Assembly: GCA_017539425.1 (NCBI GenBank)
Contig: JAFYHA010000141.1
Coordinates: 3,839 to 67,838, forward strand
Direction: 5' to 3'
DNA: 64,000 nt
Source: Clostridia bacterium
Lineage (GTDB): Bacteria; Bacillota; Clostridia; Oscillospirales; CAG-272
Shown: in pieces, positions 4,629 to 58,970 of the stretch
How positions within the stretch are numbered: position 1 is the first letter of the stretch
How the letters are laid out: the number at the start of each line of letters is the position of its first letter
Notes under the pieces: model-generated
Databases searched by the model: none
What the model saw: the letters and a program-made list of their open reading frames with translations, nothing else
Told to the model about the DNA's origin: nothing
Translations under genes and position numbers: made by a program

Positions 4629-6818
4629 TCAGAGTTTGCACTGTCCTCTGATCTGCTTAAGTATCATAGATTTTTCGATATTCGTTTTGGAAGGCGAATA
4701 GTAAATATCAAAAGCGTACACATCCTCGGCGACCTCCGAGATCCCGCAGATCTTGAGTTCCTGGAAAATCCGAAGGATGAGCACCAGCTTTGCGTAATTG
4801 AATGTCAGTGAATTGATGTAATGCTGATTCAGCAAAAACAGCATCTTGTGGACCGGATATTCCCGGATCCCGGAACGGAACGCATTGGACAGGAAACAAT
4901 AAACCGCCTTGAAGTCGTTGCGCGTCGGGACGATCTGCTCTTCGGGATAGATCCTGTCACCGGCGCAGATCTCCGCATACCGTTTTTTCTCATACTCCAT
5001 CTCGTTCTGTTCGATCTCGGGATGGTGCATGTCCTGGATCGTCAACTGAAGCGTAGCCAGATTCTGGAAATCGTTGATCCCGCACTGGAAGAGCAGATCC
5101 GCCCGTTCGCCCTGGACAAAATCGATCTCCTCCGCGGTCTTGCTGAACCACATAGCCGTAAACTTTCTGCCCTGGCAGTCCAGGAACAGCTTTACATGCT
5201 TGTTCTTGATCTCCATGATCCGGTCGATCCGGGCACCCCTGAGAATGAACAGAGGCATCGGGTTGGCCGTTCCGCACGGCTCCAGCCGTTCGATTTCATT
5301 GGCCAGTTCCAGCGTCAGGTCATCCGGAGACAGTTCACACTCCGCCTCCATCTCCATAACGATATCCCCGTCCTGAAGTTCCTGCTCCACGTAGGCGTTA
5401 AGACGTCTTCTGAGTTCCGGGATACGGTCCCTCTCGACCGTCAGTCCGGCAGCCAGTTCGTGACCGCCGTACCGGACCAGAATATCTTCGCACGTCTGCA
5501 GGGCCTTGACCAGATTGATGCCCCGTACACTGCGTCCGGAGCCTTTTCCCTGGTCTGTCGGTTCCGGCGGGTTGTGAGCCGTACCTTCAAATGAGATCAG
5601 GATGGCAGGCAAGCCTAACGTATCCGTAATCCTGGAGACCACGATTCCGATGACACCGGGTTTCCAGTCATCCTTGCTCAGCACCACAAAGCGGTCCTTG
5701 GACAAATCGCACTGCGTCTTCATCAGTTCGCGCGCTTCCTCGTCAATGATGTTCACTTCCTGCTGCCTCTGCGCATTGATCTCGCAAAGCGCCTTTGCCA
5801 TTTCCGCCGCTTCCCCGGGATTCGTCTCCAGGAGCAGGCGGACGGCACGGGTGGCGCTGTCCATACGTCCTGCCGCGTTCAAACGGGGCGCAAGTCCGTA
5901 TCCGATGGTGTTGGTCGTAACCTTTCTGCGGCCGCTTCCGGTGGAAGCGCTGATCAGGGCGGCCATACCCGGACGCGGCCTGGAATTGATCAGTTTAAGT
6001 CCCAGCGTTACGATCAGCCGGTTCTCGTCAATCAGCGGCATCACGTCCGCGATCGTACCCACGGCAACCAGATCGCCGTAATCCAGACAGACCTGCTTGA
6101 TGCAGTCCATCGGGTCCAGGCCGGTCGTTTTCGCACGATGGAGTTCAAACGCACAGATGAACTTGAATACGACACCTACGCCGGCCAGATCTCGGAACGG
6201 ATAACTTGAATCCGGTCTGTGCGGATTGATCACGGCTACGGCATCCGGAAGTTCCTTCTGGCACTCGTGATGATCGGTCACGATCATCTCCATACCCAGG
6301 GACTTGGCGTACCGGGTCTCCTCGTTGGCAGTGATACCGGTATCTACCGTTACGACGAGGGTAACGCCATGCTCATGGAGGATATCCAGTCCCGCGGTGG
6401 AAACACCGTACCCTTCCTTATCCCGGGTCGGGATATAGTACTCGACCTGGGCACCGAGTTTCTTCAGGTACAGGTCCAGTATGGTGACGGAAGTCACTCC
6501 GTCCACGTCATAATCGCCATATATGGCGATCTTTTCGTTGTCCGCAACGGCTTTTTCCAACCGTTCAATGGCTTTCTCCACATCGTTGAGCAACATGGGG
6601 TCGTGCAGCACCGTATCGTTGCAGTTCAAAAAGCTCCTGGCTCTTGCCGGGTCGGTCATTCCCCGGTTGAAGAGCAGGACCGCCATGATACGGCTGACGC
6701 CCAGATCGTTCATCAGCTTTTCAACGGACTGCTCCGTTTCGCTGTATCCCGGTCTGTAGCGGATCTTCCACTTTTTTTCTCTTGGCTGAATGAAGGATTG
6801 TTCTCTCTTGTTTGACAT
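4629..6818 (-). CDS. recJ: single-stranded-DNA-specific exonuclease RecJ
   Basis: 729 aa. DHH family motifs IYGDYDVDGVTS, VTVDTGI and VTDHHE, plus a DHHA1-like GGHELAAG. Confidence 0.93.
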   Translation of the reverse strand: MSNKREQSFIQPREKKWKIRYRPGYSETEQSVEKLMNDLGVSRIMAVLLFNRGMTDPARARSFLNCNDTVLHDPMLLNDVEKAIERLEKAVADNEKIAIYGDYDVDGVTSVTILDLYLKKLGAQVEYYIPTRDKEGYGVSTAGLDILHEHGVTLVVTVDTGITANEETRYAKSLGMEMIVTDHHECQKELPDAVAVINPHRPDSSYPFRDLAGVGVVFKFICAFELHRAKTTGLDPMDCIKQVCLDYGDLVAVGTIADVMPLIDENRLIVTLGLKLINSRPRPGMAALISASTGSGRRKVTTNTIGYGLAPRLNAAGRMDSATRAVRLLLETNPGEAAEMAKALCEINAQRQQEVNIIDEEARELMKTQCDLSKDRFVVLSKDDWKPGVIGIVVSRITDTLGLPAILISFEGTAHNPPEPTDQGKGSGRSVRGINLVKALQTCEDILVRYGGHELAAGLTVERDRIPELRRRLNAYVEQELQDGDIVMEMEAECELSPDDLTLELANEIERLEPCGTANPMPLFILRGARIDRIMEIKNKHVKLFLDCQGRKFTAMWFSKTAEEIDFVQGERADLLFQCGINDFQNLATLQLTIQDMHHPEIEQNEMEYEKKRYAEICAGDRIYPEEQIVPTRNDFKAVYCFLSNAFRSGIREYPVHKMLFLLNQHYINSLTFNYAKLVLILRIFQELKICGISEVAEDVYAFDIYYSPSKTNIEKSMILKQIRGQCKL

Positions 6819-9336: not shown

Positions 9337-10236
9337 TCAAGAACCCGAACCGTTCTGGTTGCCGGCGTCGGTCATAGTTGAAGCAGGCATCACTTTTTCC
9401 TCAAGGAGTTCACCCTTGAGCATAGCGCTCAGATCCTGCTTGAGCAGAGACGGAGAATATCCCCTCTTAATGGACCCGTTGTTCGCGATGGAAATCGTTC
9501 CGGTCTCTTCGGAAACGATGATGACGACAGCGTCGCTGACCTCGCTGACGCCGACTCCGGCACGATGACGGGCACCCATGTCTCCAAACCCGGTTCCGTT
9601 TTTGGAGGAAGGCAGCATGCATCCGGCAGCGGCCACGCGATAATCGCGGATGATCACCGCTCCGTCATGAAGAGGAGATCCTTTGTAAAACAGATTCCGA
9701 AGGAGCTGTTCGCTCGGCTTGCCGTCGATCTGTGTGCCTGTTGCGGCAATATCGCCGAGCTTGGTCGAGCGCTCGATCACAATGAGTGCGCCGACCTGTC
9801 CGCGTGAAAGCTCCGCGACGGCGGCCACGGTCACATTGATAAAATCGTCCACTTCGGTCTGGTTCTGATTGATGAACCGCAGGGACAGCGTGTTGATTCC
9901 CCAGGTCCCGACCCGTTCCAGAAGATCCCGGATCTCAGGCTGGAATAGAATGAACAGTGTCAGAACTCCGGCCTGGAACAGAACCTTCAGCACCATGTAC
10001 GAGGCCGACATCTTCACGAAAAAGCTGGCCACATAGATCAGGAACAGCAGGCCGATGCCTATGATCAGCTTGATTGCGCGGCGGTCGGCGATCAGGGAGA
10101 TGATCAGATACAGGAGAAATGTCAGCGCCGCGATGTCCAATACTGCGATCAGATACTCTCCGACGCCCATTTCCTTCAAAAAATCAAGGTTCAAGCCGTG
10201 AAGGACCTGATCAAAAAAACGTCCGACAGCTTCCAT
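9337..10236 (-). CDS. cdaA: diadenylate cyclase CdaA
   Basis: 299 aa. Three N-terminal TM segments, and a DAC domain with LHDGAVII and GARHRAG motifs. Confidence 0.93.
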   Translation of the reverse strand: MEAVGRFFDQVLHGLNLDFLKEMGVGEYLIAVLDIAALTFLLYLIISLIADRRAIKLIIGIGLLFLIYVASFFVKMSASYMVLKVLFQAGVLTLFILFQPEIRDLLERVGTWGINTLSLRFINQNQTEVDDFINVTVAAVAELSRGQVGALIVIERSTKLGDIAATGTQIDGKPSEQLLRNLFYKGSPLHDGAVIIRDYRVAAAGCMLPSSKNGTGFGDMGARHRAGVGVSEVSDAVVIIVSEETGTISIANNGSIKRGYSPSLLKQDLSAMLKGELLEEKVMPASTMTDAGNQNGSGS

Positions 10237-49580: not shown

Positions 49581-50519
49581 ATGATGAGTAAAAAAATATC
49601 TTTGGTCGTGATGGCTGCCGGAATCGGTTCCCGCTTCGGGAAAGGCATTAAGCAACTTACCGCCATGGGACCAAAAGGCGAGATCATTATGGACTATTCC
49701 ATTTATGATGCCCTGAAAGCCGGCGTTGAGCAGATCGTCTTCATCATCCGGCACGATCTGGAGGCGGACTTCAAAGCCATCATAGGCGACCGAATTGCGA
49801 AATACTGCAAGGTGGCTTATGCATTTCAGGAAAAGGATGACCTCCCGGAGGGCTTCCGGGTTCCTGAGGGCCGCACCAAGCCATGGGGGACAGGGCAGGC
49901 CGTTCTGTCTTGCAAAAACATCGTGGACGGCCCGTTTATCGTCATCAACGCAGATGACTATTACGGAACCGGTGTTTTTGAAAACCTGGTCGCCTTCCTT
50001 AAGTCCACTCCGGCCATGAGCGACGGCAAACTGAATTTCTGTATGGGCGGTTACAAACTCCGGAACACATTGAGTGACAACGGCGGCGTATCCCGCGGCG
50101 TGTGCACTGTTTCCAAGGACGGATATCTGCAATCCATTGAGGAGACACATCACATTGAAAAAACCGCCGGCGGTGCAGGTTCCGTTCAGGATGACGGAAC
50201 GGTCCGTCCTCTGGATCTGGACTCGCCGGTCTCCATGAATATGTGGGGACTGACTCCGGATATATTCCCTGTTCTGGAAGCCAAATTCAAAGAATTCCTG
50301 CGGGCGACACCGGCCGACAATCTCAAAGCCGAGTTCCTTCTGCCGACCATACTGGGTGACCTGCTTGCCGAAAACAAGGCCTGCATCAAGGTCCTGCATA
50401 CGGATGCAGAATGGTTCGGAGTCACCTATGCGGCGGATACGCCAACTGTTCAGGAACCGTTCAAAAAGCTTTGCGCAGAAGGCGTATATCCGGAAGGTTT
50501 GTTCGGCAGAGCCGACTGA
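49581..50519 (+). CDS. sugar-phosphate nucleotidyltransferase family protein
   Basis: 312 aa. N-terminal VVMAAGIGSRFG nucleotide-binding loop, WGTGQAV, and INADDYYG. Confidence 0.82.
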   Translation: MMSKKISLVVMAAGIGSRFGKGIKQLTAMGPKGEIIMDYSIYDALKAGVEQIVFIIRHDLEADFKAIIGDRIAKYCKVAYAFQEKDDLPEGFRVPEGRTKPWGTGQAVLSCKNIVDGPFIVINADDYYGTGVFENLVAFLKSTPAMSDGKLNFCMGGYKLRNTLSDNGGVSRGVCTVSKDGYLQSIEETHHIEKTAGGAGSVQDDGTVRPLDLDSPVSMNMWGLTPDIFPVLEAKFKEFLRATPADNLKAEFLLPTILGDLLAENKACIKVLHTDAEWFGVTYAADTPTVQEPFKKLCAEGVYPEGLFGRAD

Positions 50520-50527
50520 CACGCAGT

Positions 50528-51307
50528 ATGCGCGCCACACATTATACCTTTCACACCAACGGCCGGGTTTCCAACCTGACCGTTGCTGTCTGTGCGGATC
50601 TTCACGACCGTGTCGCTCCGGCCCAAAAAGCGATAAGCCTTTTGCAGGACCTACGCCCGGATCTGATCTTTCTCCCGGGAGATATCGTTGAGAATCATCC
50701 TGAACCGTACGGCTGCGGGTTTGCGTTTCTGCGCGATCTTTGCTCAATCGCCCCGTGCTATATGTCATTGGGAAACCACGAGACCGGAGGCCGGCATTAC
50801 TACCGGAAAGGTACGACATTGCTGATGAACGAGCCGAACTCTTACCGTAACTTTATTACGGACATAAAGGCCACGGGCGTCGTTCTTCTGGACCAATCCT
50901 ATGTGGAAACCAAAGGGCTGATTGTGGGGGGCATTTCTTCTCATCTGTTCCGCAACGCGGATGAAAAGCTGGATCATCATCCCATTCCAACGGCATTTCT
51001 TGAAGACTTTTCCTCCCGCCCGGGATTCCATGTCCTGTTGTGCCACCATCCGGAGATATTCCCGCAAATTGCAGCCCATCCCATTGAACTGACCCTTTGC
51101 GGGCATGCCCACGGCGGACAGATACGCCTTTTCGGCCGTGGACTGTTTGCACCCGGGCAGGGATTGTTTCCCAAATGGACAAACGGCCTTTTGGAACTTC
51201 CTGAGCATCCGGGCCATAAGATGCTGGTTTCAAGGGGAATGGCCAACAATACCCCGATTCCCAGGTTCTTCAATCCCACCCAGATTCCCGTGATTCATTT
51301 TGTTTGA
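50528..51307 (+). CDS. metallophosphoesterase
   Basis: Start MRATHYTFHTNGR at 50528. Calcineurin-like motifs VCADLHD, PGDIVE, LGNHE and CGHAHGGQ. Confidence 0.85.
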   Translation: MRATHYTFHTNGRVSNLTVAVCADLHDRVAPAQKAISLLQDLRPDLIFLPGDIVENHPEPYGCGFAFLRDLCSIAPCYMSLGNHETGGRHYYRKGTTLLMNEPNSYRNFITDIKATGVVLLDQSYVETKGLIVGGISSHLFRNADEKLDHHPIPTAFLEDFSSRPGFHVLLCHHPEIFPQIAAHPIELTLCGHAHGGQIRLFGRGLFAPGQGLFPKWTNGLLELPEHPGHKMLVSRGMANNTPIPRFFNPTQIPVIHFV

Positions 51308-51377: not shown

Positions 51378-52916
51378 TCAAGCCTCGGCTTCCGCCTCAA
51401 GAGCATCCATCAACTTTTCAATATCGCCCTCGATCTTGCTCTGGTAAGTTGCAATCGCTGTAGTCAAAGACCCACGGCTTCCGCCCAGGCCCTGGATCAC
51501 ATCACCGAATGTGCCGAAGTTGAACACCAGACCCGGATCAAAAACACGACTGCTCAGAATGATTCCCAGGCTTTCGCGAGATTCCTCGTCACTGCTGTAC
51601 TTGGTCTTCAGGGACAGATCCACATAAGCGGTCTGCAGGCCATAGTAGGAATCTGCGGCAAGCGCTTCCAGAACCATACCCGTCATGGACAGCCTGTCTG
51701 CCGCATTGTCATTCGGGATAGACAGAAGACCCGTGGTATGCTGGCTGACGGTGGAATAATACTGTTTCTGCTCTTCCTCCAGCATTGGGATCGGCAGAAT
51801 GCCGAATTCAACTTCAGACGAACGCATGTTGGTGACTTCATCCAGTCTCATCCAGAAGAACAGTCCATGCCCGGTTTCAAACATACGGGTATATGCCGCG
51901 TCATCAATATTCTGCTTGTGATGATTGAAGAAGTAATTGGAATTCATAAATTCTCCAATGATAATGACAGCATCCACATCCCGGTCATCACCAAGGGCAA
52001 ATTCAAATTCTCCATCCTCGTTCGTACGGATGATTCTGGCTCCGCTGCCATGGAAGAAGCTGGTGCTGACGTCATGTTTGCCAAGGAATCCCCAGAAGTC
52101 TTCCGCGTCATCGACGCCGTCTCCGTTACCGTTGGTATCCGGATTGCCGACTTCTTCGCAGTATCCCATCAGTTTATCATACGTCCACTCATAGTTGGCC
52201 ACATCATCATAGAACGTGGTCATACCACGGTCATGGGCCGCCTTCTTGCTGAAGGCCAGGGCGGCAGTTGCGTCTTTATCGTTGACGTTGATTGCCGTTG
52301 CTGTCAGGTACAGCGTTCCCATAATGGACAGACTCTCAATTGAGTCCTGATCCCACCAAGGCTTTTCCAGATCGATATACTCAACCTGGTTTAAATCCAC
52401 GAACAGGCCCTTGTTCAGCATGGACGGGAACTCCAGCAGGCGGGGATATACGACCTCATAGGCATCGTCCCCTGCTCCACCGCTCGTCACCTGGTTTTCG
52501 ATCATACCGGGAACGGACGAATTGGTGGCAAACGTCTGAGTGATCTCAACTCCGTAGTTCTCTTTGATCAGTCCGTTTCTTTCATAGACCGCATCATTGA
52601 CAAGGTCTGCATTGATGCCTTCGCTTACAATGTCACGGTACTGCCGGACAGTCTCTCTCCAGCTATCCACTTCCCAGCAAAGAACATCCAAGGTCGATCC
52701 CCAGCTATAGGTTGTGGGGATATCCGGTTTTATCCGGGTATCCAATTCTTCGGGCTTGGTTTCGCTTTCACCGCTACCGCTGTTCTGGGTCTCTTTTGAG
52801 GTTTCGTCACCCGTTTTGCCGCCCGAATCCGTTGTTGAGGATCCACAGGAAGCCAGGACCGTTATGAACATCATCGCAGCCAAAACCAGACAAAGCAATC
52901 TAATCAGGTTCTTCAT
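51378..52916 (-). CDS. extracellular solute-binding lipoprotein (large CUT1/LplA-like family), orphan; paralog of 21200..22756
   Basis: 512 aa. Lipobox FITVLASC-G and a Ser/Gly/Glu-rich linker. Blocks shared with the other copy: (I/V)NDAVYERN, PWWDQ, LSIMG, and FG(V/I)L..P(L/M)..E(D/E)Q..Y. Confidence 0.8.
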   Translation of the reverse strand: MKNLIRLLCLVLAAMMFITVLASCGSSTTDSGGKTGDETSKETQNSGSGESETKPEELDTRIKPDIPTTYSWGSTLDVLCWEVDSWRETVRQYRDIVSEGINADLVNDAVYERNGLIKENYGVEITQTFATNSSVPGMIENQVTSGGAGDDAYEVVYPRLLEFPSMLNKGLFVDLNQVEYIDLEKPWWDQDSIESLSIMGTLYLTATAINVNDKDATAALAFSKKAAHDRGMTTFYDDVANYEWTYDKLMGYCEEVGNPDTNGNGDGVDDAEDFWGFLGKHDVSTSFFHGSGARIIRTNEDGEFEFALGDDRDVDAVIIIGEFMNSNYFFNHHKQNIDDAAYTRMFETGHGLFFWMRLDEVTNMRSSEVEFGILPIPMLEEEQKQYYSTVSQHTTGLLSIPNDNAADRLSMTGMVLEALAADSYYGLQTAYVDLSLKTKYSSDEESRESLGIILSSRVFDPGLVFNFGTFGDVIQGLGGSRGSLTTAIATYQSKIEGDIEKLMDALEAEAEA

Positions 52917-53069: not shown

Positions 53070-53099
53070 AAAAAAGAAGGGGGGAATAATTGATCCCCC
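53070..53099 (-). terminator. rho-independent terminator after the XRE/S24 repressor gene
   Basis: Minus strand reads GGGGGAtcaattatTCCCCCC followed by TTCTTTTTT. Confidence 0.75.
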
Positions 53100-53124: not shown

Positions 53125-53910
53125 TTATTTCTTTTTGAGTTTCCCGATCACACGGCCATAGCAGTGGACTTCGGAAAACTGGCTCAGCTGAATCGGTTTG
53201 TAAGCCGGGTTCAAGGATTCAAGGCGGTCTCCCTTGTACAACTTGAAATAGGATTCTCCGTCGGCTACAAACAAGCCCAGTTCTCCGGGCTCGATACCGT
53301 CGCAGGCCTGCACCATAAGGTAATCTCCGTCATGGAACTTGGGTTCCATACTGTCGCCGGATATTACGACCACGAAATCTGCGTCCCTGGTTTTGTCAAC
53401 ATCTGGAATCCAGATCTCATCCGTTGTTGTCGTGTCCTCAGATAGGTACTGTCCGGTACCGGCGGAAGCCTTCAGATCCGCGTACAACGCGATCTTGCGT
53501 TTCCCGGGCGCCGTATCCTTCTGGATAGCGGGTAGAATGCGAGTTGACACAGGTTCTGGCGCGCTCTTCACACTCTCTCCGGACAACCGGATCGTCTCCA
53601 GTTTCAGCAAGGCAAGCACAACGTCCCTGCCATGCTGATCCAGTGCCCGGAATTCTTCAACGAGCTGTGTTTCGTCATCGTCCAGCATCAGTTTCTCTCC
53701 GCTCTCTTCTCCGTTGATCAGGTATCCGTACGGGATTTTCAGAGCATCAGCCATTGCAATAATATGATTGAATTTCGGAACGTCCACGACCCCGGCAAGT
53801 ATTTTTGCCAGTGTGCTTGCCGAAATGCCGGTAAGCTCCGCAAGCGTTTCATTGGTCATCTTTCTTTCCGCTTTGACTTTTTTAATTCTCTCAATATAAT
53901 TGTTGTCCAT
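53125..53910 (-). CDS. XRE-family HTH repressor fused to an S24 (LexA/CI-like) self-cleaving peptidase domain
   Basis: Start MDNNYIERIKKVKAERKMTNETLAELTGISASTLAKIL (HTH_XRE) at 53910. The C-terminal S24 domain has an Ala-Gly candidate cleavage site (LKASAGTGQY), the catalytic Ser motif ISGDSMEP, and a downstream Lys (SYFKLYKG). Confidence 0.88.
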   Translation of the reverse strand: MDNNYIERIKKVKAERKMTNETLAELTGISASTLAKILAGVVDVPKFNHIIAMADALKIPYGYLINGEESGEKLMLDDDETQLVEEFRALDQHGRDVVLALLKLETIRLSGESVKSAPEPVSTRILPAIQKDTAPGKRKIALYADLKASAGTGQYLSEDTTTTDEIWIPDVDKTRDADFVVVISGDSMEPKFHDGDYLMVQACDGIEPGELGLFVADGESYFKLYKGDRLESLNPAYKPIQLSQFSEVHCYGRVIGKLKKK

Positions 53911-53945
53911 AGAGACTATCCCTTCTTTCTCTTTTGGCTGATTGC

Positions 53946-53974
53946 ATATTACCACAAATGGAATCGTTTGTAAA
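53946..53974 (-). promoter_or_regulatory. putative promoter of the repressor gene (TTTACA-17-TAATAT) with an operator half-site in the spacer
   Basis: Minus strand reads TTTACAaacgaTTCCATTTGTGGTAATAT. The motif's terminal TGG acts as a TGn extended -10. Confidence 0.6.
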
Positions 53975-54013
53975 GTGTTTTCTAAAAATTTTTCCGTTTT
54001 TTGTCATAAGCCC

Positions 54014-54042
54014 TTGACAATTTCCATTTTTGGTGGTAAGAT
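54014..54042 (+). promoter_or_regulatory. putative promoter of the small membrane protein gene (TTGACA-17-TAAGAT) with an operator half-site in the spacer
   Basis: TTGACAatTTCCATTTTTGGTGGTAAGAT. The architecture matches the divergent repressor promoter. Confidence 0.62.
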
Positions 54043-54057
54043 TGTGTCAGAATCAAG

Positions 54058-54083
54058 CCACAAACGGAAATTTCCATTTGTGG
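54058..54083. promoter_or_regulatory. 26-bp palindromic operator CCACAAACGGAAATTTCCATTTGTGG
   Basis: Two inverted copies of TTCC[A/G]TTTGTGG around a central A. It lies between the predicted -10 (54037..54042) and the RBS/ATG at 54106. Confidence 0.7.
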
Positions 54084-54105
54084 TCATCCAAGAAAGGCTT
54101 CCGTT

Positions 54106-54396
54106 ATGGATTCGTTATCCAAGATTCAGTCCGTGTCATCCTATAAACCTCTTCGCCAGGCGGCGGTCAAGGCCCGGTTCTTTCCTGCAAAAACCGATTC
54201 TTCCGTAAAAGTCGCTACACTTATCAAGGTGCTGGCTTTACTGGGAGCCGCAACAGGCTTCTTCGGAATCATTCTTTTTACCTGCATCGCTGTAGCCTCC
54301 GGCATCAGCCTTTCAATCACCATTTTTGGAATCAGCGCATTCTCTGCCCTGGAGATGATCTCACTTCACCGGTTGCGCAAGATGTCCCCTATGTAA
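54106..54396 (+). CDS. small hypothetical membrane protein (96 aa, two predicted TM helices)
   Basis: The ORF has its own consensus -35 promoter, a GAAAGG RBS 8 nt upstream, and a strong terminator 40 nt downstream. The polar N-terminus (~35 aa) is followed by VATLIKVLALLGAATGFFGIILFTCIAVA and SGISLSITIFGISAFSALEMISL, then a basic tail HRLRKMSPM. I recognise no family. Confidence 0.55.
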   Translation: MDSLSKIQSVSSYKPLRQAAVKARFFPAKTDSSVKVATLIKVLALLGAATGFFGIILFTCIAVASGISLSITIFGISAFSALEMISLHRLRKMSPM

Positions 54397-54437
54397 ATCT
54401 TTTCGTCAACTTTCATTCTGTCCCCACAGAATCCCCC

Positions 54438-54470
54438 GCACACGGCTCTCCCCAAGCCGTGTGCTTTTTT
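54438..54470 (+). terminator. rho-independent terminator after the small membrane protein gene
   Basis: GCACACGGCT-ctcccca-AGCCGTGTGC (10 bp) followed by TTTTTT. Confidence 0.88.
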
Positions 54471-54555
54471 CAAAAACGGTTTGTAAACATGTTGCACAAT
54501 TTGAGTGGGCGTGAGTTGTGCACTTGGGCAAAAACCAGTAGAGTAAAAAAAGCAA

Positions 54556-56674: not shown

Positions 56675-58342
56675 TCACACAAGCTTGGGAGCTTTCAGAC
56701 TCACGATCCTGTTGAATGTGTTTTCGTGTTTCGTATCCTTGCAGTAATATGCATCCCTTACGAACTGGAATCTGTCTCCGGACTTGGCTTCGGCCAACGC
56801 AGGTTCTACAAGAGCATTCTCAATGGCCACTACGGACTCGGGATTCAAATACTGATCATAGTCGGCGCTGGAGATCTTGGTCATATCCGCTTCGGTGAAA
56901 AGTTGCCCATAAAGCATCAGGGTGGCTTTTTCCGCATTCTTTTCAGACAGCCAGTGCAATGTGCCCTTTACCTTTCTTCCGTCCACAGGATTGCCGTTTC
57001 CGGACACCAGATCCGCGCTCACATGTATTTCAACGATCTTCCCCTCTGCATCTGCGATTACTTCGTCGCAGCGAACAATGTAAGCACCCATCAGCCGGAC
57101 CTCCCCGTCCGGTTTCAGCCTTTGGAATTTTGGTGGCGGCACCATGGCAAAGTCTTCCTCATCGATGAAAAGATTGCGGGTAAACAAAACCTTGCGGGTA
57201 CCGTCCTCCGGACGGTTCGGATTGTTGGGAAGTTCGAACCATTCCTCCCGATCCTCAGGATAATTGGTCACCACGACCTTGATCGGATGCTTGATGGCAA
57301 TTCGTCTGGGGGCTGCTTCGTTCAGTTCATCGCGGATACAAGCCTCCATCATGGAAATATCCACAATGCTGTCCGCCTTGGAAATACCGGCATCCTCGAC
57401 GAATTTGAAAATGGAAGTCGGGGTATAACCTCTTCTGCGCAATCCGCACAGGGTCGGCAGTCTCGGATCGTCCCATCCGTCTGCAAGACCCGTCTCCACC
57501 AGTTTGCGGAGATAGCGCTTGCTCATCACCGTGTAAGTCATATTCAGCCGGGCAAACTCACGCTGCTTGGGCGGGATCTGTCCGGGTTTTACAATACCCG
57601 CATGTTCCACGACCCATTCATAAAGGGGCCTGTGATTCTCAAATTCAAGTGAACACAGCGAATAGGTGATTCCCTCTATGGCGTCCTGAATCGGATGCGC
57701 AAAATCGTACAAAGGATAGATGCACCACTGATCCCCCTGACGGTGATGTGACGTATGCAATATCCGGTAGATGGCCGGATCACGCATATTCATATTCGGG
57801 CTGGCCATGTCAATCTTAGCTCTGAGCGTCTTGCTTCCGTCCGGGAACTCCCCGGCTTTCATACGCTCGAACAGATCCAGATTCTCTTCTACGGTCCGGT
57901 TGCGGTAAGGGCTCTCCTTGCCCGGCTCGGTCAACGTTCCCCGATACTCGCGCAGCTCGTCCGCACTCAGGTCATCCACATAAGCCAATCCGTCCCGGAT
58001 CAGTTTCAGCGCACACTCGTAGCACTTTCCAAAGTAATCCGAACCATAGAAAATGCCTCCGTTAGGCACCGCGCCCAGCCAGTTGAGATCGTTTTCAATC
58101 GATTCAACATACTCCATATCCTCTTTGGAAGGATTCGTATCGTCAAAGCGCAGGTTGAACAGGCCACCGTATTTCTTGGCCGTCGTGTAGTTGATCATGA
58201 TGGCTTTTGCCGATCCGATATGCAGATAGCCGTTGGGCTCCGGAGGAAATCGGGTATGAACCTTGATGTCCGGATTCTGTTGCAGATCCGCATCAATGAT
58301 ATCATGAATGAAATTACCCTTGCTTTCAGTTTCAAATTCCAT
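56675..58342 (-). CDS. glnS: glutamine--tRNA ligase
   Basis: The track ORF is over-extended. The start is MEFETESKGNFIHDIID at 58342. HIGH motif (PNGYLHIGSAKA) and KMSKS-like VMSKR. Product is 555 aa. Confidence 0.95.
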   Translation of the reverse strand: MEFETESKGNFIHDIIDADLQQNPDIKVHTRFPPEPNGYLHIGSAKAIMINYTTAKKYGGLFNLRFDDTNPSKEDMEYVESIENDLNWLGAVPNGGIFYGSDYFGKCYECALKLIRDGLAYVDDLSADELREYRGTLTEPGKESPYRNRTVEENLDLFERMKAGEFPDGSKTLRAKIDMASPNMNMRDPAIYRILHTSHHRQGDQWCIYPLYDFAHPIQDAIEGITYSLCSLEFENHRPLYEWVVEHAGIVKPGQIPPKQREFARLNMTYTVMSKRYLRKLVETGLADGWDDPRLPTLCGLRRRGYTPTSIFKFVEDAGISKADSIVDISMMEACIRDELNEAAPRRIAIKHPIKVVVTNYPEDREEWFELPNNPNRPEDGTRKVLFTRNLFIDEEDFAMVPPPKFQRLKPDGEVRLMGAYIVRCDEVIADAEGKIVEIHVSADLVSGNGNPVDGRKVKGTLHWLSEKNAEKATLMLYGQLFTEADMTKISSADYDQYLNPESVVAIENALVEPALAEAKSGDRFQFVRDAYYCKDTKHENTFNRIVSLKAPKLV

Positions 58343-58358
58343 CTGCTTTCGCTCCTTT

Positions 58359-58970
58359 TTACATTCCCAGAATCTGTAGGGCATCTCCCAAAGTAGCTGA
58401 GGGGCCATGCCCGGGGAACAGTATGATTTTTCTATCCATACAAGCCAACAGTCCCAATGAGGCTGCCATTTCAGCATCATTTCCGCTATACAGGTCTGTC
58501 CTTCCGTATCCCATGGAGAACAGTGTATCGCCGGAAAGAAGGGTCCGGCCTGTCAGGAAGCAGCAACTTCCCGATGTGTGCCCCGGCGTATGTATGGTCT
58601 GGATTTCTTCTTTTCCAATATGGAAAGACGCACCGTCCGAAAACGTTTGGTCGACGAACCCATAGGCGCCTTCCTTTCCAAAAAACAGCGTATAGGCGTT
58701 CTTTCTTCCGTCATTGACAAACGTGCTGTCCGCTTCGTGGATCATCACAGGCACATGAAATACCGTTCTCGCTTCCTGCATGCACAGCATATGGTCAAAA
58801 TGCCCGTGGGTCAACAGTATGGCTTTGAGTTCAGCTCCGTGCTGCCGGAGTTCCCTCTGAACAGATGCTACAGGAGCACTCGGATCAACCAAAACAGCCT
58901 CTCCGTCCGCCACCATAAGATAACAGTTAGAGGCATAATCCACCGAGGATTCAACATGTACGATTTCCAT
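58359..58970 (-). CDS. MBL-fold metallo-hydrolase (glyoxalase II-like)
   Basis: Start MEIVHVESSVDYASNCYL at 58970 (GGAGG upstream). LTHGHFDH motif. Product is 203 aa. Confidence 0.88.
   Translation of the reverse strand: MEIVHVESSVDYASNCYLMVADGEAVLVDPSAPVASVQRELRQHGAELKAILLTHGHFDHMLCMQEARTVFHVPVMIHEADSTFVNDGRKNAYTLFFGKEGAYGFVDQTFSDGASFHIGKEEIQTIHTPGHTSGSCCFLTGRTLLSGDTLFSMGYGRTDLYSGNDAEMAASLGLLACMDRKIILFPGHGPSATLGDALQILGM

Follow-up and report, generated by a model that had tools for sequence, protein, structure and literature searches.

In the lexA-yneA pair of Bacillus subtilis and Listeria, and likewise in the lexA-sosA pair of Staphylococcus, a repressor with an S24 peptidase domain is transcribed divergently from a small, fast-evolving membrane protein that it represses. 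From one lineage to another, small proteins of the YneA/SosA type cannot be matched by sequence, and it is their position that identifies them; YneA and SosA each consist of a single transmembrane (TM) helix and an extracellular domain (PMC6851548), and YneA acts on FtsW via its TM region (PMC13396833). SOS-type division inhibitors are known in few model Gram-positive bacteria, are not findable through homology, and no example is known from the dominant Clostridia of gut and rumen communities. The subject of this analysis is a pair of the same general design in a Clostridia bacterium, in a 64-kb stretch of contig JAFYHA010000141.1 ("the window"; all coordinates are in window numbering, position 1 being its first letter): a 261-amino acid (aa) repressor with an XRE-type helix-turn-helix (HTH) and an S24 domain, facing a 96-aa protein that is predicted to form a membrane hairpin. 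The architecture of this module is secure, and the pair is probably an undescribed stress- or DNA-damage-triggered switch. Its kind is already known, whether one takes it as an S24 repressor with a divergent target or as a case of an SOS-type small membrane protein; what appear to be new are the pairing of a CI-type HTH repressor and a conserved hairpin protein, its putative effector, with both ends inside the cell (N-in/C-in), the TTCC-N6-GGAA operator, and the breadth of occurrence across gut and rumen Clostridia.

Self-contained units of an S24 repressor and its divergent target have been described for regulators of the Bacteroidetes and for HdiR of Lactococcus and Streptococcus; HdiR resembles the window repressor in being a phage-derived COG2932-type protein that joins an XRE HTH to an S24 domain; it is fixed chromosomally, provided with a divergent target and, as the window repressor is predicted to be, autoregulated (PMC8565304). 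That target, on the other hand, is a umuC mutagenesis cassette or recA rather than a small membrane protein, HdiR replaces a missing LexA, and the window repressor is only about 30% identical to the streptococcal phage-type repressors. The closest conceptual precedent is FddR of Francisella, an S24 repressor co-opted from phage: it binds a palindromic site in the promoter of its own gene and, together with a divergent gene whose function is not known, makes up a self-contained unit (PMC13148647). It belongs to another phylum, recognises a different motif (GTG-N11-CAC) and has different partner genes, with some paralogues facing dinB; FddR also has the support of RNA sequencing and electrophoretic mobility shift assays, whereas the window module is known here from sequence. 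IrvR of Streptococcus mutans is a core-genome CI-like S24 repressor with an Ala-Gly site and a Ser/Lys dyad that represses the adjacent gene, irvA, and descends from a phage immunity region (PMC7101444). The differences are that IrvA is a Cro-like regulator, not a membrane protein, and that cleavage of IrvR is constitutive and RecA-independent. SidA and DidA of Caulobacter and TisB and DinQ of E. coli are very small, hydrophobic, damage-induced, strongly repressed and membrane-acting proteins; they have no sequence relation to the window protein, are LexA-regulated without a dedicated repressor, and have a single TM helix.

How does the pair in the window compare? It has the small membrane protein beside a divergent S24 repressor that YneA, SosA, ChiZ and DivS exemplify, these four making up a functional class and not a homology family. 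It departs from lexA-yneA and lexA-sosA in the DNA-binding domain of the repressor, which is an XRE/Cro-type HTH, and in the operator, which is TTCC-N6-GGAA-like instead of CGAAC-N4-GTTCG; it departs from YneA, SosA, ChiZ and DivS in the form of the small protein, a predicted two-helix hairpin with a 3-residue turn, no LysM (which YneA and ChiZ have) and no extracellular C-terminal domain. The genes and their predicted control elements lie as follows, with the basis of each assignment in brackets.

53080 to 53099, minus strand: intrinsic terminator of the repressor gene, GGGGGATCAATTATTCCCCC and then a T run
53125 to 53910, minus strand: repressor gene, 261 aa, ATG at 53910 (Pfam, family alignment, AlphaFold2 (AF2) model, Foldseek)
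53946 to 53974, minus strand: repressor promoter P_rep, TTTACA-17 nt-TAATAT with extended TG (promoter scan; also family-conserved)
53952 to 53963: operator unit O1, CCACAAATGGAA, within the P_rep spacer, predicted autoregulation site (repeat analysis)
53992 to 54003: operator unit O2, degenerate, TTCCGTTTTTTG, between both promoters (sequence, repeat analysis)
54014 to 54042, plus strand: small-gene promoter P_small, TTGACA-17 nt-TAAGAT with extended TG (promoter scan)
54022 to 54033: operator unit O3, TTCCATTTTTGG, within the P_small spacer (repeat analysis, family alignment)
54058 to 54083: operator units O4 and O5, 26-bp palindrome CCACAAACGGAAA/TTTCCATTTGTGG, 3' of the P_small -10 (repeat analysis)
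54091 to 54097, plus strand: ribosome-binding site (RBS) of the small gene, AGAAAGG, 8 nt 5' of the ATG (read from sequence)
54106 to 54396, plus strand: small membrane protein gene, 96 aa (dN/dS, AF2 model, alignments, charge analysis)
54438 to 54472, plus strand: intrinsic terminator of the small gene, 10-bp stem (7 G-C) and 7-nt loop at 54438 to 54464, then TTTTTT (terminator scan)

An earlier note on this DNA had described the divergent open reading frame (ORF) as equipped with a TTGACA promoter, an RBS, a strong terminator and two hydrophobic helices, and all of these are present, the helices in the AF2 model.

The 195-nt intergenic region carries four copies of a repeated unit, CCACAAAYGGAA (TTCCRTTTGTGG on the other strand), in addition to the degenerate O2. 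At one mismatch or fewer this unit occurs six times in the window against 0.96 expected, a count reached by none of 100 shuffles, and four of the six matches are clustered inside 135 nt of the intergenic region; the one-mismatch matches at 9594 and 60057 were judged probable chance occurrences, and no further operator clusters were found in the window. O4 and O5 are two dyad units spaced 16 nt, at about +10 to +35 from the estimated transcription start, an O1-equivalent unit is kept in two relatives (L002 and L093), and O2 is the window counterpart of a family-wide TTTTTCCGATTTTTGAAAAA element. Both promoters are of sigma-A type and near-consensus, and the placement of these predicted operators over them is consistent with autoregulation and with strong repression of the small gene. 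(Two side observations concern this region. Transcribed into the 5' leader of the small-gene mRNA, the palindrome at 54058-54083 would fold into a hairpin of 11 pairs, and it was flagged as terminator-like on the minus strand too; an RNA role was set aside as secondary, and a DNA operator role is likelier, because the counterparts in relatives are only 4+4 dyads without stable RNA stems. A strong promoter-like site, TTGACT-16-TATAAT (53873-53900, plus strand, 11/12 matches) lies within the first repressor codons and is directed toward the small gene; it may be a by-product of the coding sequence, since its TATAAT coincides with the conserved "NYIE" codons and its TTGACT with the "KVK" codons.)

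The repressor is readily placed. Its Pfam matches are HTH_19/HTH_3 (residues 7-69) and Peptidase_S24 (residues 147-255), the latter (PF00717) with an E value of 4e-18 and with profile positions 5-116 of 116 covered. The motifs of a self-cleaving protein follow in order: LKASA150-G151TG, with its putative cleavage site at A150-G151; GDS187MEP; and FK223. In a phmmer alignment to the sequences of the PDB, S187 (the nucleophile) and K223 (the general base) match Ser60 and Lys97 of the solved UmuD'. A150-G151 stands within an S-A-G-x-G segment and is invariant in the family alignment (A3), and the Ala-Gly pair, the Ser, and a Lys exactly 36 residues past that Ser are found in 80/80 related loci. 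The AF2 model of the repressor (20 family members) has a five-helix XRE/Cro-type HTH at 4-66, a conserved helical hairpin at 78-109, a disordered linker at 112-124 and, at 132-258, a beta-rich C-terminal S24 domain. Foldseek matches this last domain to LexA, lambda CI and UmuD' (best E value 3e-8; target-normalised TM-score about 0.7) in alignments of about 135 columns that span the LexA cleavage-site region, and it matches the N-terminus to 434 Cro. On sequence and predicted structure the protein belongs to the peptidase S24/LexA-like superfamily and is of the self-cleaving type, its catalytic residues intact.

It is not a canonical LexA: with the NCBIfam LexA equivalog it reaches 24 bits where the cut-off is 111, and on the S24 part only, and both Pfam and Foldseek give an XRE/Cro-type HTH at the N-terminus in place of the LexA winged helix. 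The pattern that it does present is that of phage CI-type or HdiR-type (COG2932) proteins, which is to say an XRE HTH and an S24 domain together with a divergent promoter region containing multiple (predicted) operators; phrog_4, "transcriptional repressor", matches it with an E value of 2.5e-35, and PADLOC returns weak HTH-only matches. The earlier note's account of an XRE HTH and an apparently intact S24 domain at 53125-53910, and of an XRE-type rather than a LexA-type DNA-binding domain, is thus borne out by Pfam (HTH_3/HTH_19), by the UmuD' alignment, by the 434 Cro match, and by the residues found in all 80 relatives. ATG 53910 is the right start: MDNNY or MDY opens the orthologues, and the in-frame GTG further upstream falls on the 5' side of the predicted -10. 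Between the window and a 74%-identical orthologue the ratio of nonsynonymous to synonymous substitution (dN/dS) is 0.066.

The small ORF is a real gene under purifying selection, as judged by sequence comparison with its orthologue: the proportions of synonymous and nonsynonymous differences are pS 0.63 and pN 0.27, dN/dS is 0.24, and the 96-aa length is kept. In the AF2 model residues 1-30 of the product are disordered and two helices (31-65 and 69-93, with a confidence score, pLDDT, of about 85) are joined by a turn at 66-68; the first helix holds a GFFG motif and the second a conserved Glu83, which is retained in at least 90% of one alignment of the small proteins (A4) and is invariant in another (A5). 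With a net charge of +5 on its N-terminal region and a basic C-terminal tail, the protein is predicted by the positive-inside rule to be an N-in/C-in hairpin with almost nothing extracellular. No family was found for it in Pfam, NCBIfam, PADLOC or PHROGs, nor was LysM or any other Pfam domain found in it, and Rfam gave no match to the intergenic region. (Scans of the small family covered Pfam and PADLOC; those of PHROGs were made with the window protein and one family member, and those of NCBIfam with the window protein only.)

The repressor turns out to be one of a large family. At E <= 1e-10 it comprises 3182 clusters, many of them full-length and 45-50% identical, which their sources label as "LexA family" or "helix-turn-helix" proteins of Clostridia metagenome-assembled genomes (MAGs). 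A scan of GTDB species genomes yielded 80 loci, in MAGs whose depositors assigned them to Oscillospiraceae, Eubacteriales, Lachnospiraceae and Clostridia. Of the 79 with enough upstream sequence, 62 have a divergent ORF of 91-116 aa, encoding a hairpin protein, upstream of the repressor. These small proteins typically have a MNAYY-like start and a C-terminal hydrophobic hairpin (...CFFGFIGVIGGIE.G...LEILCLK); they match no Pfam, PADLOC or PHROG family, and all 148 of the small-protein clusters retrieved either lack a name or are called "hypothetical". The usual place of the module in relatives is after gpr (Peptidase_A25) and spoIIP, near genes for an SBP_bac_5 lipoprotein and a metallo-beta-lactamase (MBL) protein, and this shared chromosomal neighbourhood points to vertical descent of the module across gut and rumen Clostridia.

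Control sequences are kept along with the genes. When the family's intergenic regions are aligned on the small-gene -35, a repressor promoter (TTTACAAA...TATAAT) stands back-to-back with a small-gene promoter (TTGACAAATTCC....GGTG.TATAAT) throughout the alignment, TTCC-N6-GGAA-type dyads occupy both promoter spacers and the interval between the promoters, and a strong palindromic dyad follows 10-35 nt past the -10, in many cases joined by one or two others in the 5' leader; promoters and operators alike are retained even where repressor identity is down to 45-50%. The intergenic regions (13.9 kb) hold 48 exact TTCC-N6-GGAA sites (3.45 per kb) as against 25 in the other 545 kb (0.046 per kb), a 75-fold enrichment. 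In L093, a relative whose repressor is 65% identical, two tandem TTCC-N6-GGAA dyads stand 16 nt apart. Since this is also the spacing of the window palindrome, the CCACAAAYGGAA units of the window are a diverged form of the predicted family operator. (In the window itself there are six TTCC-N6-GGAA matches, and most of their spacers are rich in G+C, which those of the operator units are not.) The Firmicute SOS box, CGAAC-N4-GTTCG, is not what these regions contain, the intergenic repeats being CCACAAAYGGAA or TTCC-N6-GGAA, and the earlier note was right to set the operator apart from it. No repair gene with these sites was seen in the available sequence; neither was a further operator-bearing promoter found in the window, nor anything convincing in 545 kb of relatives' flanks. 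One sub-clade (L029, L035, L047, L048, L049, L058, L063, L073 and L085) has an extra exact TTCC-N6-GGAA dyad about 70 nt into the small ORF, over its SKKG codons and about 265 nt upstream of the repressor start, which may be an additional, intragenic operator.

Is the window's 96-aa protein a member of this wider hairpin family? A word-index search with it retrieves only 2 clusters, and HMMER against 1.84 billion representatives finds its own clade and one further protein (P0123) only. P0123 is 34% identical to it and is divergently paired with a repressor (P0006) that is 65% identical to the window's, and this pair takes its place in a series: as repressor identity falls from 100 to 74, 65 and about 50%, that of the small protein falls in step, from 100 to 58, 34 and about 18%. 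An hhalign comparison of the window protein with the wider family gives a probability of 79% and an E value of 1.6e-5 across the hairpin, and the two share an FFG in the first helix and, close to where the second ends, a Glu with basic residues after it. Plain HMMER fails to connect them, and the link is therefore made by position, architecture and hhalign. We treat the window protein as a fast-diverged orthologue of the wider family, an assignment for which sequence evidence alone is weak and which draws largely on position and architecture.

The chromosomal setting is that of housekeeping genes. Within about 7 kb the 5' flank reads, in order, MBOAT, a BspA-type leucine-rich repeat lipoprotein, tyrS, a nucleotidyltransferase, a metallophosphoesterase and a 512-aa lipoprotein, then the pair; the 3' flank reads SBP_bac_5 lipoprotein, glnS, MBL-fold hydrolase, rplQ, rpoA, rpsD, rpsK and rpsM. 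No integrase, Cro, structural or lysis gene lies within about 7 kb on either side, and gene order is kept on metagenomic contigs of a related species in which the small protein is 58% and the repressor 74% identical. Between orthologous species the intergenic DNA is better conserved (73%) than the small coding sequence (63%), and in the 58%-identity orthologue a single base differs in the TTGACAA(T/A)TTCCATTTTTGGTGGTAAGAT promoter-operator stretch. The pair is not inside a prophage or an integrative and conjugative element (ICE), given its housekeeping flanks and synteny that is kept in a species with a 58%-identical small protein; the earlier note, which had remarked on lipoprotein-type flanks and the lack of integrase, Cro, structural and lysis neighbours, is upheld on this point.

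Phage relatives nonetheless bear on where the repressor came from. Relatives in phages and IMG/VR are at most 35% identical to it, and the nearest ones outside the chromosomal family are CI-like repressors of Clostridium and Streptococcus phages, at 30-35% identity. What appears to be shared with phage CI-like repressors is the helical region after the HTH with its (F/Y)R.LD motif, since KKYRTLD recurs in phage-relative translations; what is shared with the CI/Cro switches of Firmicute temperate phages is repressor architecture, back-to-back promoters and multiple operators. The difference from those switches is that the sole divergent gene in the window encodes a membrane hairpin protein, has its own terminator and sits in a housekeeping context. 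In the 12 phage relatives that were examined the first divergent ORF encodes 63-92 aa, is non-hydrophobic and is followed by further ORFs; by sequence pattern alone these first ORFs would be Cro-like. A search of IMG/VR for relatives of the small protein, by a pattern method of limited sensitivity, found none. Housekeeping flanks, conserved synteny and the membrane hairpin partner do not fit a prophage immunity region. Since the phage relatives are distant and face Cro-like genes, and no small-protein relative was found in IMG/VR, the family looks like a long-domesticated CI-type repressor in which the Cro side has been replaced by the hairpin gene.

How might such a switch work? We would propose the following cycle. 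1) The repressor dimer would bind the dyads, limiting its own promoter and keeping the small gene fully off, as the operator placement suggests. 2) A stress signal, most likely RecA filaments formed after DNA damage, would stimulate autocleavage at A150-G151; this step is proposed because the Ala-Gly, Ser and Lys residues are invariant and because LexA, lambda CI and HdiR behave in this way. 3) Cleavage would part the DNA-binding from the dimerising domain, and both genes would be derepressed. 4) The released hairpin protein would act inside the membrane, by analogy with lexA-yneA, lexA-sosA and SidA, its likeliest role being that of a transient brake on division or growth exerted via a membrane partner such as the divisome. 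5) With the signal gone, newly made intact repressor would close the switch again. The complete proposition, a chromosomally fixed two-gene switch in which an autocleaving repressor answers a RecA/DNA-damage signal by releasing a hairpin brake on division or growth, has in our estimation about an even chance of being right; for the hairpin protein taken by itself, a role as a division or growth brake is, on analogy, the most likely one. A broader version, in which the CI-type repressor and a new family of roughly 100-aa N-in/C-in hairpin proteins, with an FFG motif and an invariant intramembrane Glu, constitute an undescribed damage checkpoint shared by gut and rumen Clostridia (Oscillospiraceae and Eubacteriales-type, with thousands of protein clusters), is put forward tentatively and is rather doubtful: division or growth would be arrested within the membrane, and the module would provide this large, mostly uncultured group with its missing SOS-type division inhibitor, in parallel to canonical LexA or replacing it, beside gpr-spoIIP in spore-formers.

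Several findings weigh against the proposed switch. The homology of the 96-aa protein to the wider family is weak by sequence, at about 6-11 bits in HMMER and the 79% in hhalign. RecA dependence is unreadable from sequence, and IrvR, also CI-like with an S24 domain, needs no RecA for its cleavage (PMC7101444). The predicted hairpin, its outer loop 2-6 residues long, is a different object from the single TM helix and extracellular domain of YneA, SosA and ChiZ. Neither lexA nor recA gave a tblastn match in the window, to which this search was confined. Lastly, 17 of the 79 lineages hold an autoregulated-looking repressor without the small gene.

Those 17 lineages call for a closer description. 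They are L034, L036, L037, L041, L053, L060, L065-L067, L075, L087, L089 and L090, in which the repressor lies at about position 6001, and also L030, L044, L050 and L084. In all 15 whose upstream sequence was read (all but L030 and L050), the promoter and TTCC-N6-GGAA dyads are kept, one dyad directly after the -10 and another upstream, and 13 of the 17 have gpr and spoIIP ahead of the repressor, at a distance of about 100 nt. (An rRNA gene was considered as the cause of the missing small ORF and rejected: Rfam gave no rRNA, and spoIIP is directly upstream instead.) A repressor that is retained where the small gene is missing may have other, or even its primary, targets apart from that gene; alternatively, the effector may have been lost secondarily. 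The repressor is probably not dedicated solely to the hairpin effector.

In the literature no paper was found on the repressor-hairpin pair. The earlier note's larger suggestion, that this is an undescribed module resembling LexA-YneA/SosA, stands in part. The idea of an undescribed module gains strength, since the pair recurs in 62/79 genomes, with a small protein of no known family and no paper to describe it; the hairpin topology and the 17 repressor-only lineages limit the likeness, and the RecA or DNA-damage trigger and the division-inhibitor or toxin role are conjectural. None of the computational findings that the note had listed as telling against its reading was obtained, the pair being outside any prophage or ICE, the ORF being conserved (dN/dS 0.24) and the S24 residues being in place in 80/80 loci.

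The main rival to the division brake leaves the switch as it is and makes the effector membrane-damaging, holin-like or TisB/DinQ-like, with depolarisation, dormancy or lysis as the outcome; one possible trigger would be RecA activated by phage, with altruistic death or abortive infection as the result. The combination of an N-in/C-in hairpin, a basic C-terminal tail and a conserved acidic residue in the membrane recalls small pore-forming toxins and class II holins; a consensus promoter overlaid by four to five operator units implies extreme repression, which suggests a toxic product; and AlpR and PrtR of Pseudomonas are stand-alone LexA-like repressors gating lysis programmes, with a related tailocin case. 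Set against this are the absence of any PADLOC or PHROG match for the small protein and of any relative found in IMG/VR, a stable housekeeping context that is no defence island, an N-terminal cytoplasmic region of 35-60 residues, which is long for a holin, and the lack of an endolysin gene nearby. On balance a membrane-damaging effector is possible, if unlikely.

A second rival alters the signal: the repressor would be an IrvR-type, RecA-independent sensor whose cleavage is constitutive or answers another cue, derepression coming about through slowed synthesis and Clp proteolysis, with a link to sporulation or envelope stress possible. The domesticated CI-like S24 repressor IrvR controls its adjacent gene in just this manner (PMC7101444), HdiR needs ClpP and responds to heat (PMC8565304), and the module of most relatives comes directly after gpr and spoIIP. 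All other characterised members of the LexA-like family are RecA-dependent, however, according to PMC7101444, and the sporulation connection is loosened by the orientation of the small gene, which is convergent with spoIIP and not co-oriented, and by the window organism, which is without gpr-spoIIP at this site. We consider a sensor of this type unlikely, the RecA-responsive repressor remaining the preferred reading.

A third possibility is that the small protein is not an effector at all. It would instead be a partner of the repressor (a tether, co-repressor or anti-repressor), the key targets lying elsewhere; UmuDAb and its divergently transcribed small co-repressor DdrR reportedly offer a precedent, the 17 lineages that retain the repressor alone point to a function without the small gene, and small protein and repressor diverge in step across the identity series. 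But the window and the 545 kb of relatives' flanks hold no other operator-bearing promoter, the small protein evolves far faster than the repressor, which would be unusual for an obligate partner, and the small-gene promoter is the most heavily operator-covered target. A partner role is quite improbable.

Finally, a decaying prophage immunity remnant without present host function, which the phage CI-like repressors (30-35% identity) and the phrog_4 match (E 2.5e-35) might bring to mind, is largely refuted and highly improbable, in view of purifying selection on both genes (dN/dS 0.066 and 0.24), invariant catalytic residues, promoters and operators retained at repressor identities of only 45-50%, the same chromosomal synteny in many species, the absence of phage genes within about 7 kb, and phage relatives that face Cro-like genes where the window pair has none.

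If the preferred reading, an autocleaving repressor releasing a hairpin brake, is taken as a working basis, the module is a widely conserved candidate with a defined repressor, a predicted operator (TTCC-N6-GGAA) and a single, tightly repressed target gene, and is therefore directly testable. It would add one more independent example of a host stress circuit built on a domesticated phage CI-type repressor, with a membrane effector in place of the Cro side, and it bears on the assembly of SOS-like networks from self-contained divergent units. One can also think of a practical use: near-consensus promoters and a multi-operator region could serve as a tight inducible switch among genetic tools for Clostridia.

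A few observations on the surroundings remain. The 512-aa predicted lipoprotein (51378-52916, minus strand), whose signal ends in LASC, has no Pfam or NCBIfam match and is syntenic in relatives as genes of 511-512 aa (L001, L002 and L005). Some mechanically called ORFs in the flanks (49581-50519 and 50411-51307, plus strand; 56675-58480, minus strand) overlap or are long by comparison with the genes called in relatives: the metallophosphoesterase ORF has 298 aa in the window versus 259 aa in relatives, and that of glnS 601 versus 555 aa, and the true starts of both are probably internal. In the 58%-identity relative the syntenic block has a DDE_Tnp_1 transposase gene (L001, 1-483) at its edge, outside the conserved module, and a similar transposase gene adjoins the small gene in L091. 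In three of the relatives without the small gene, T-box leaders lie about 4.5 kb from the repressor, beyond the SBP_bac_5 gene (L041, 1270-1487; L075, 1253-1478; L087, 1371-1593; minus strand).

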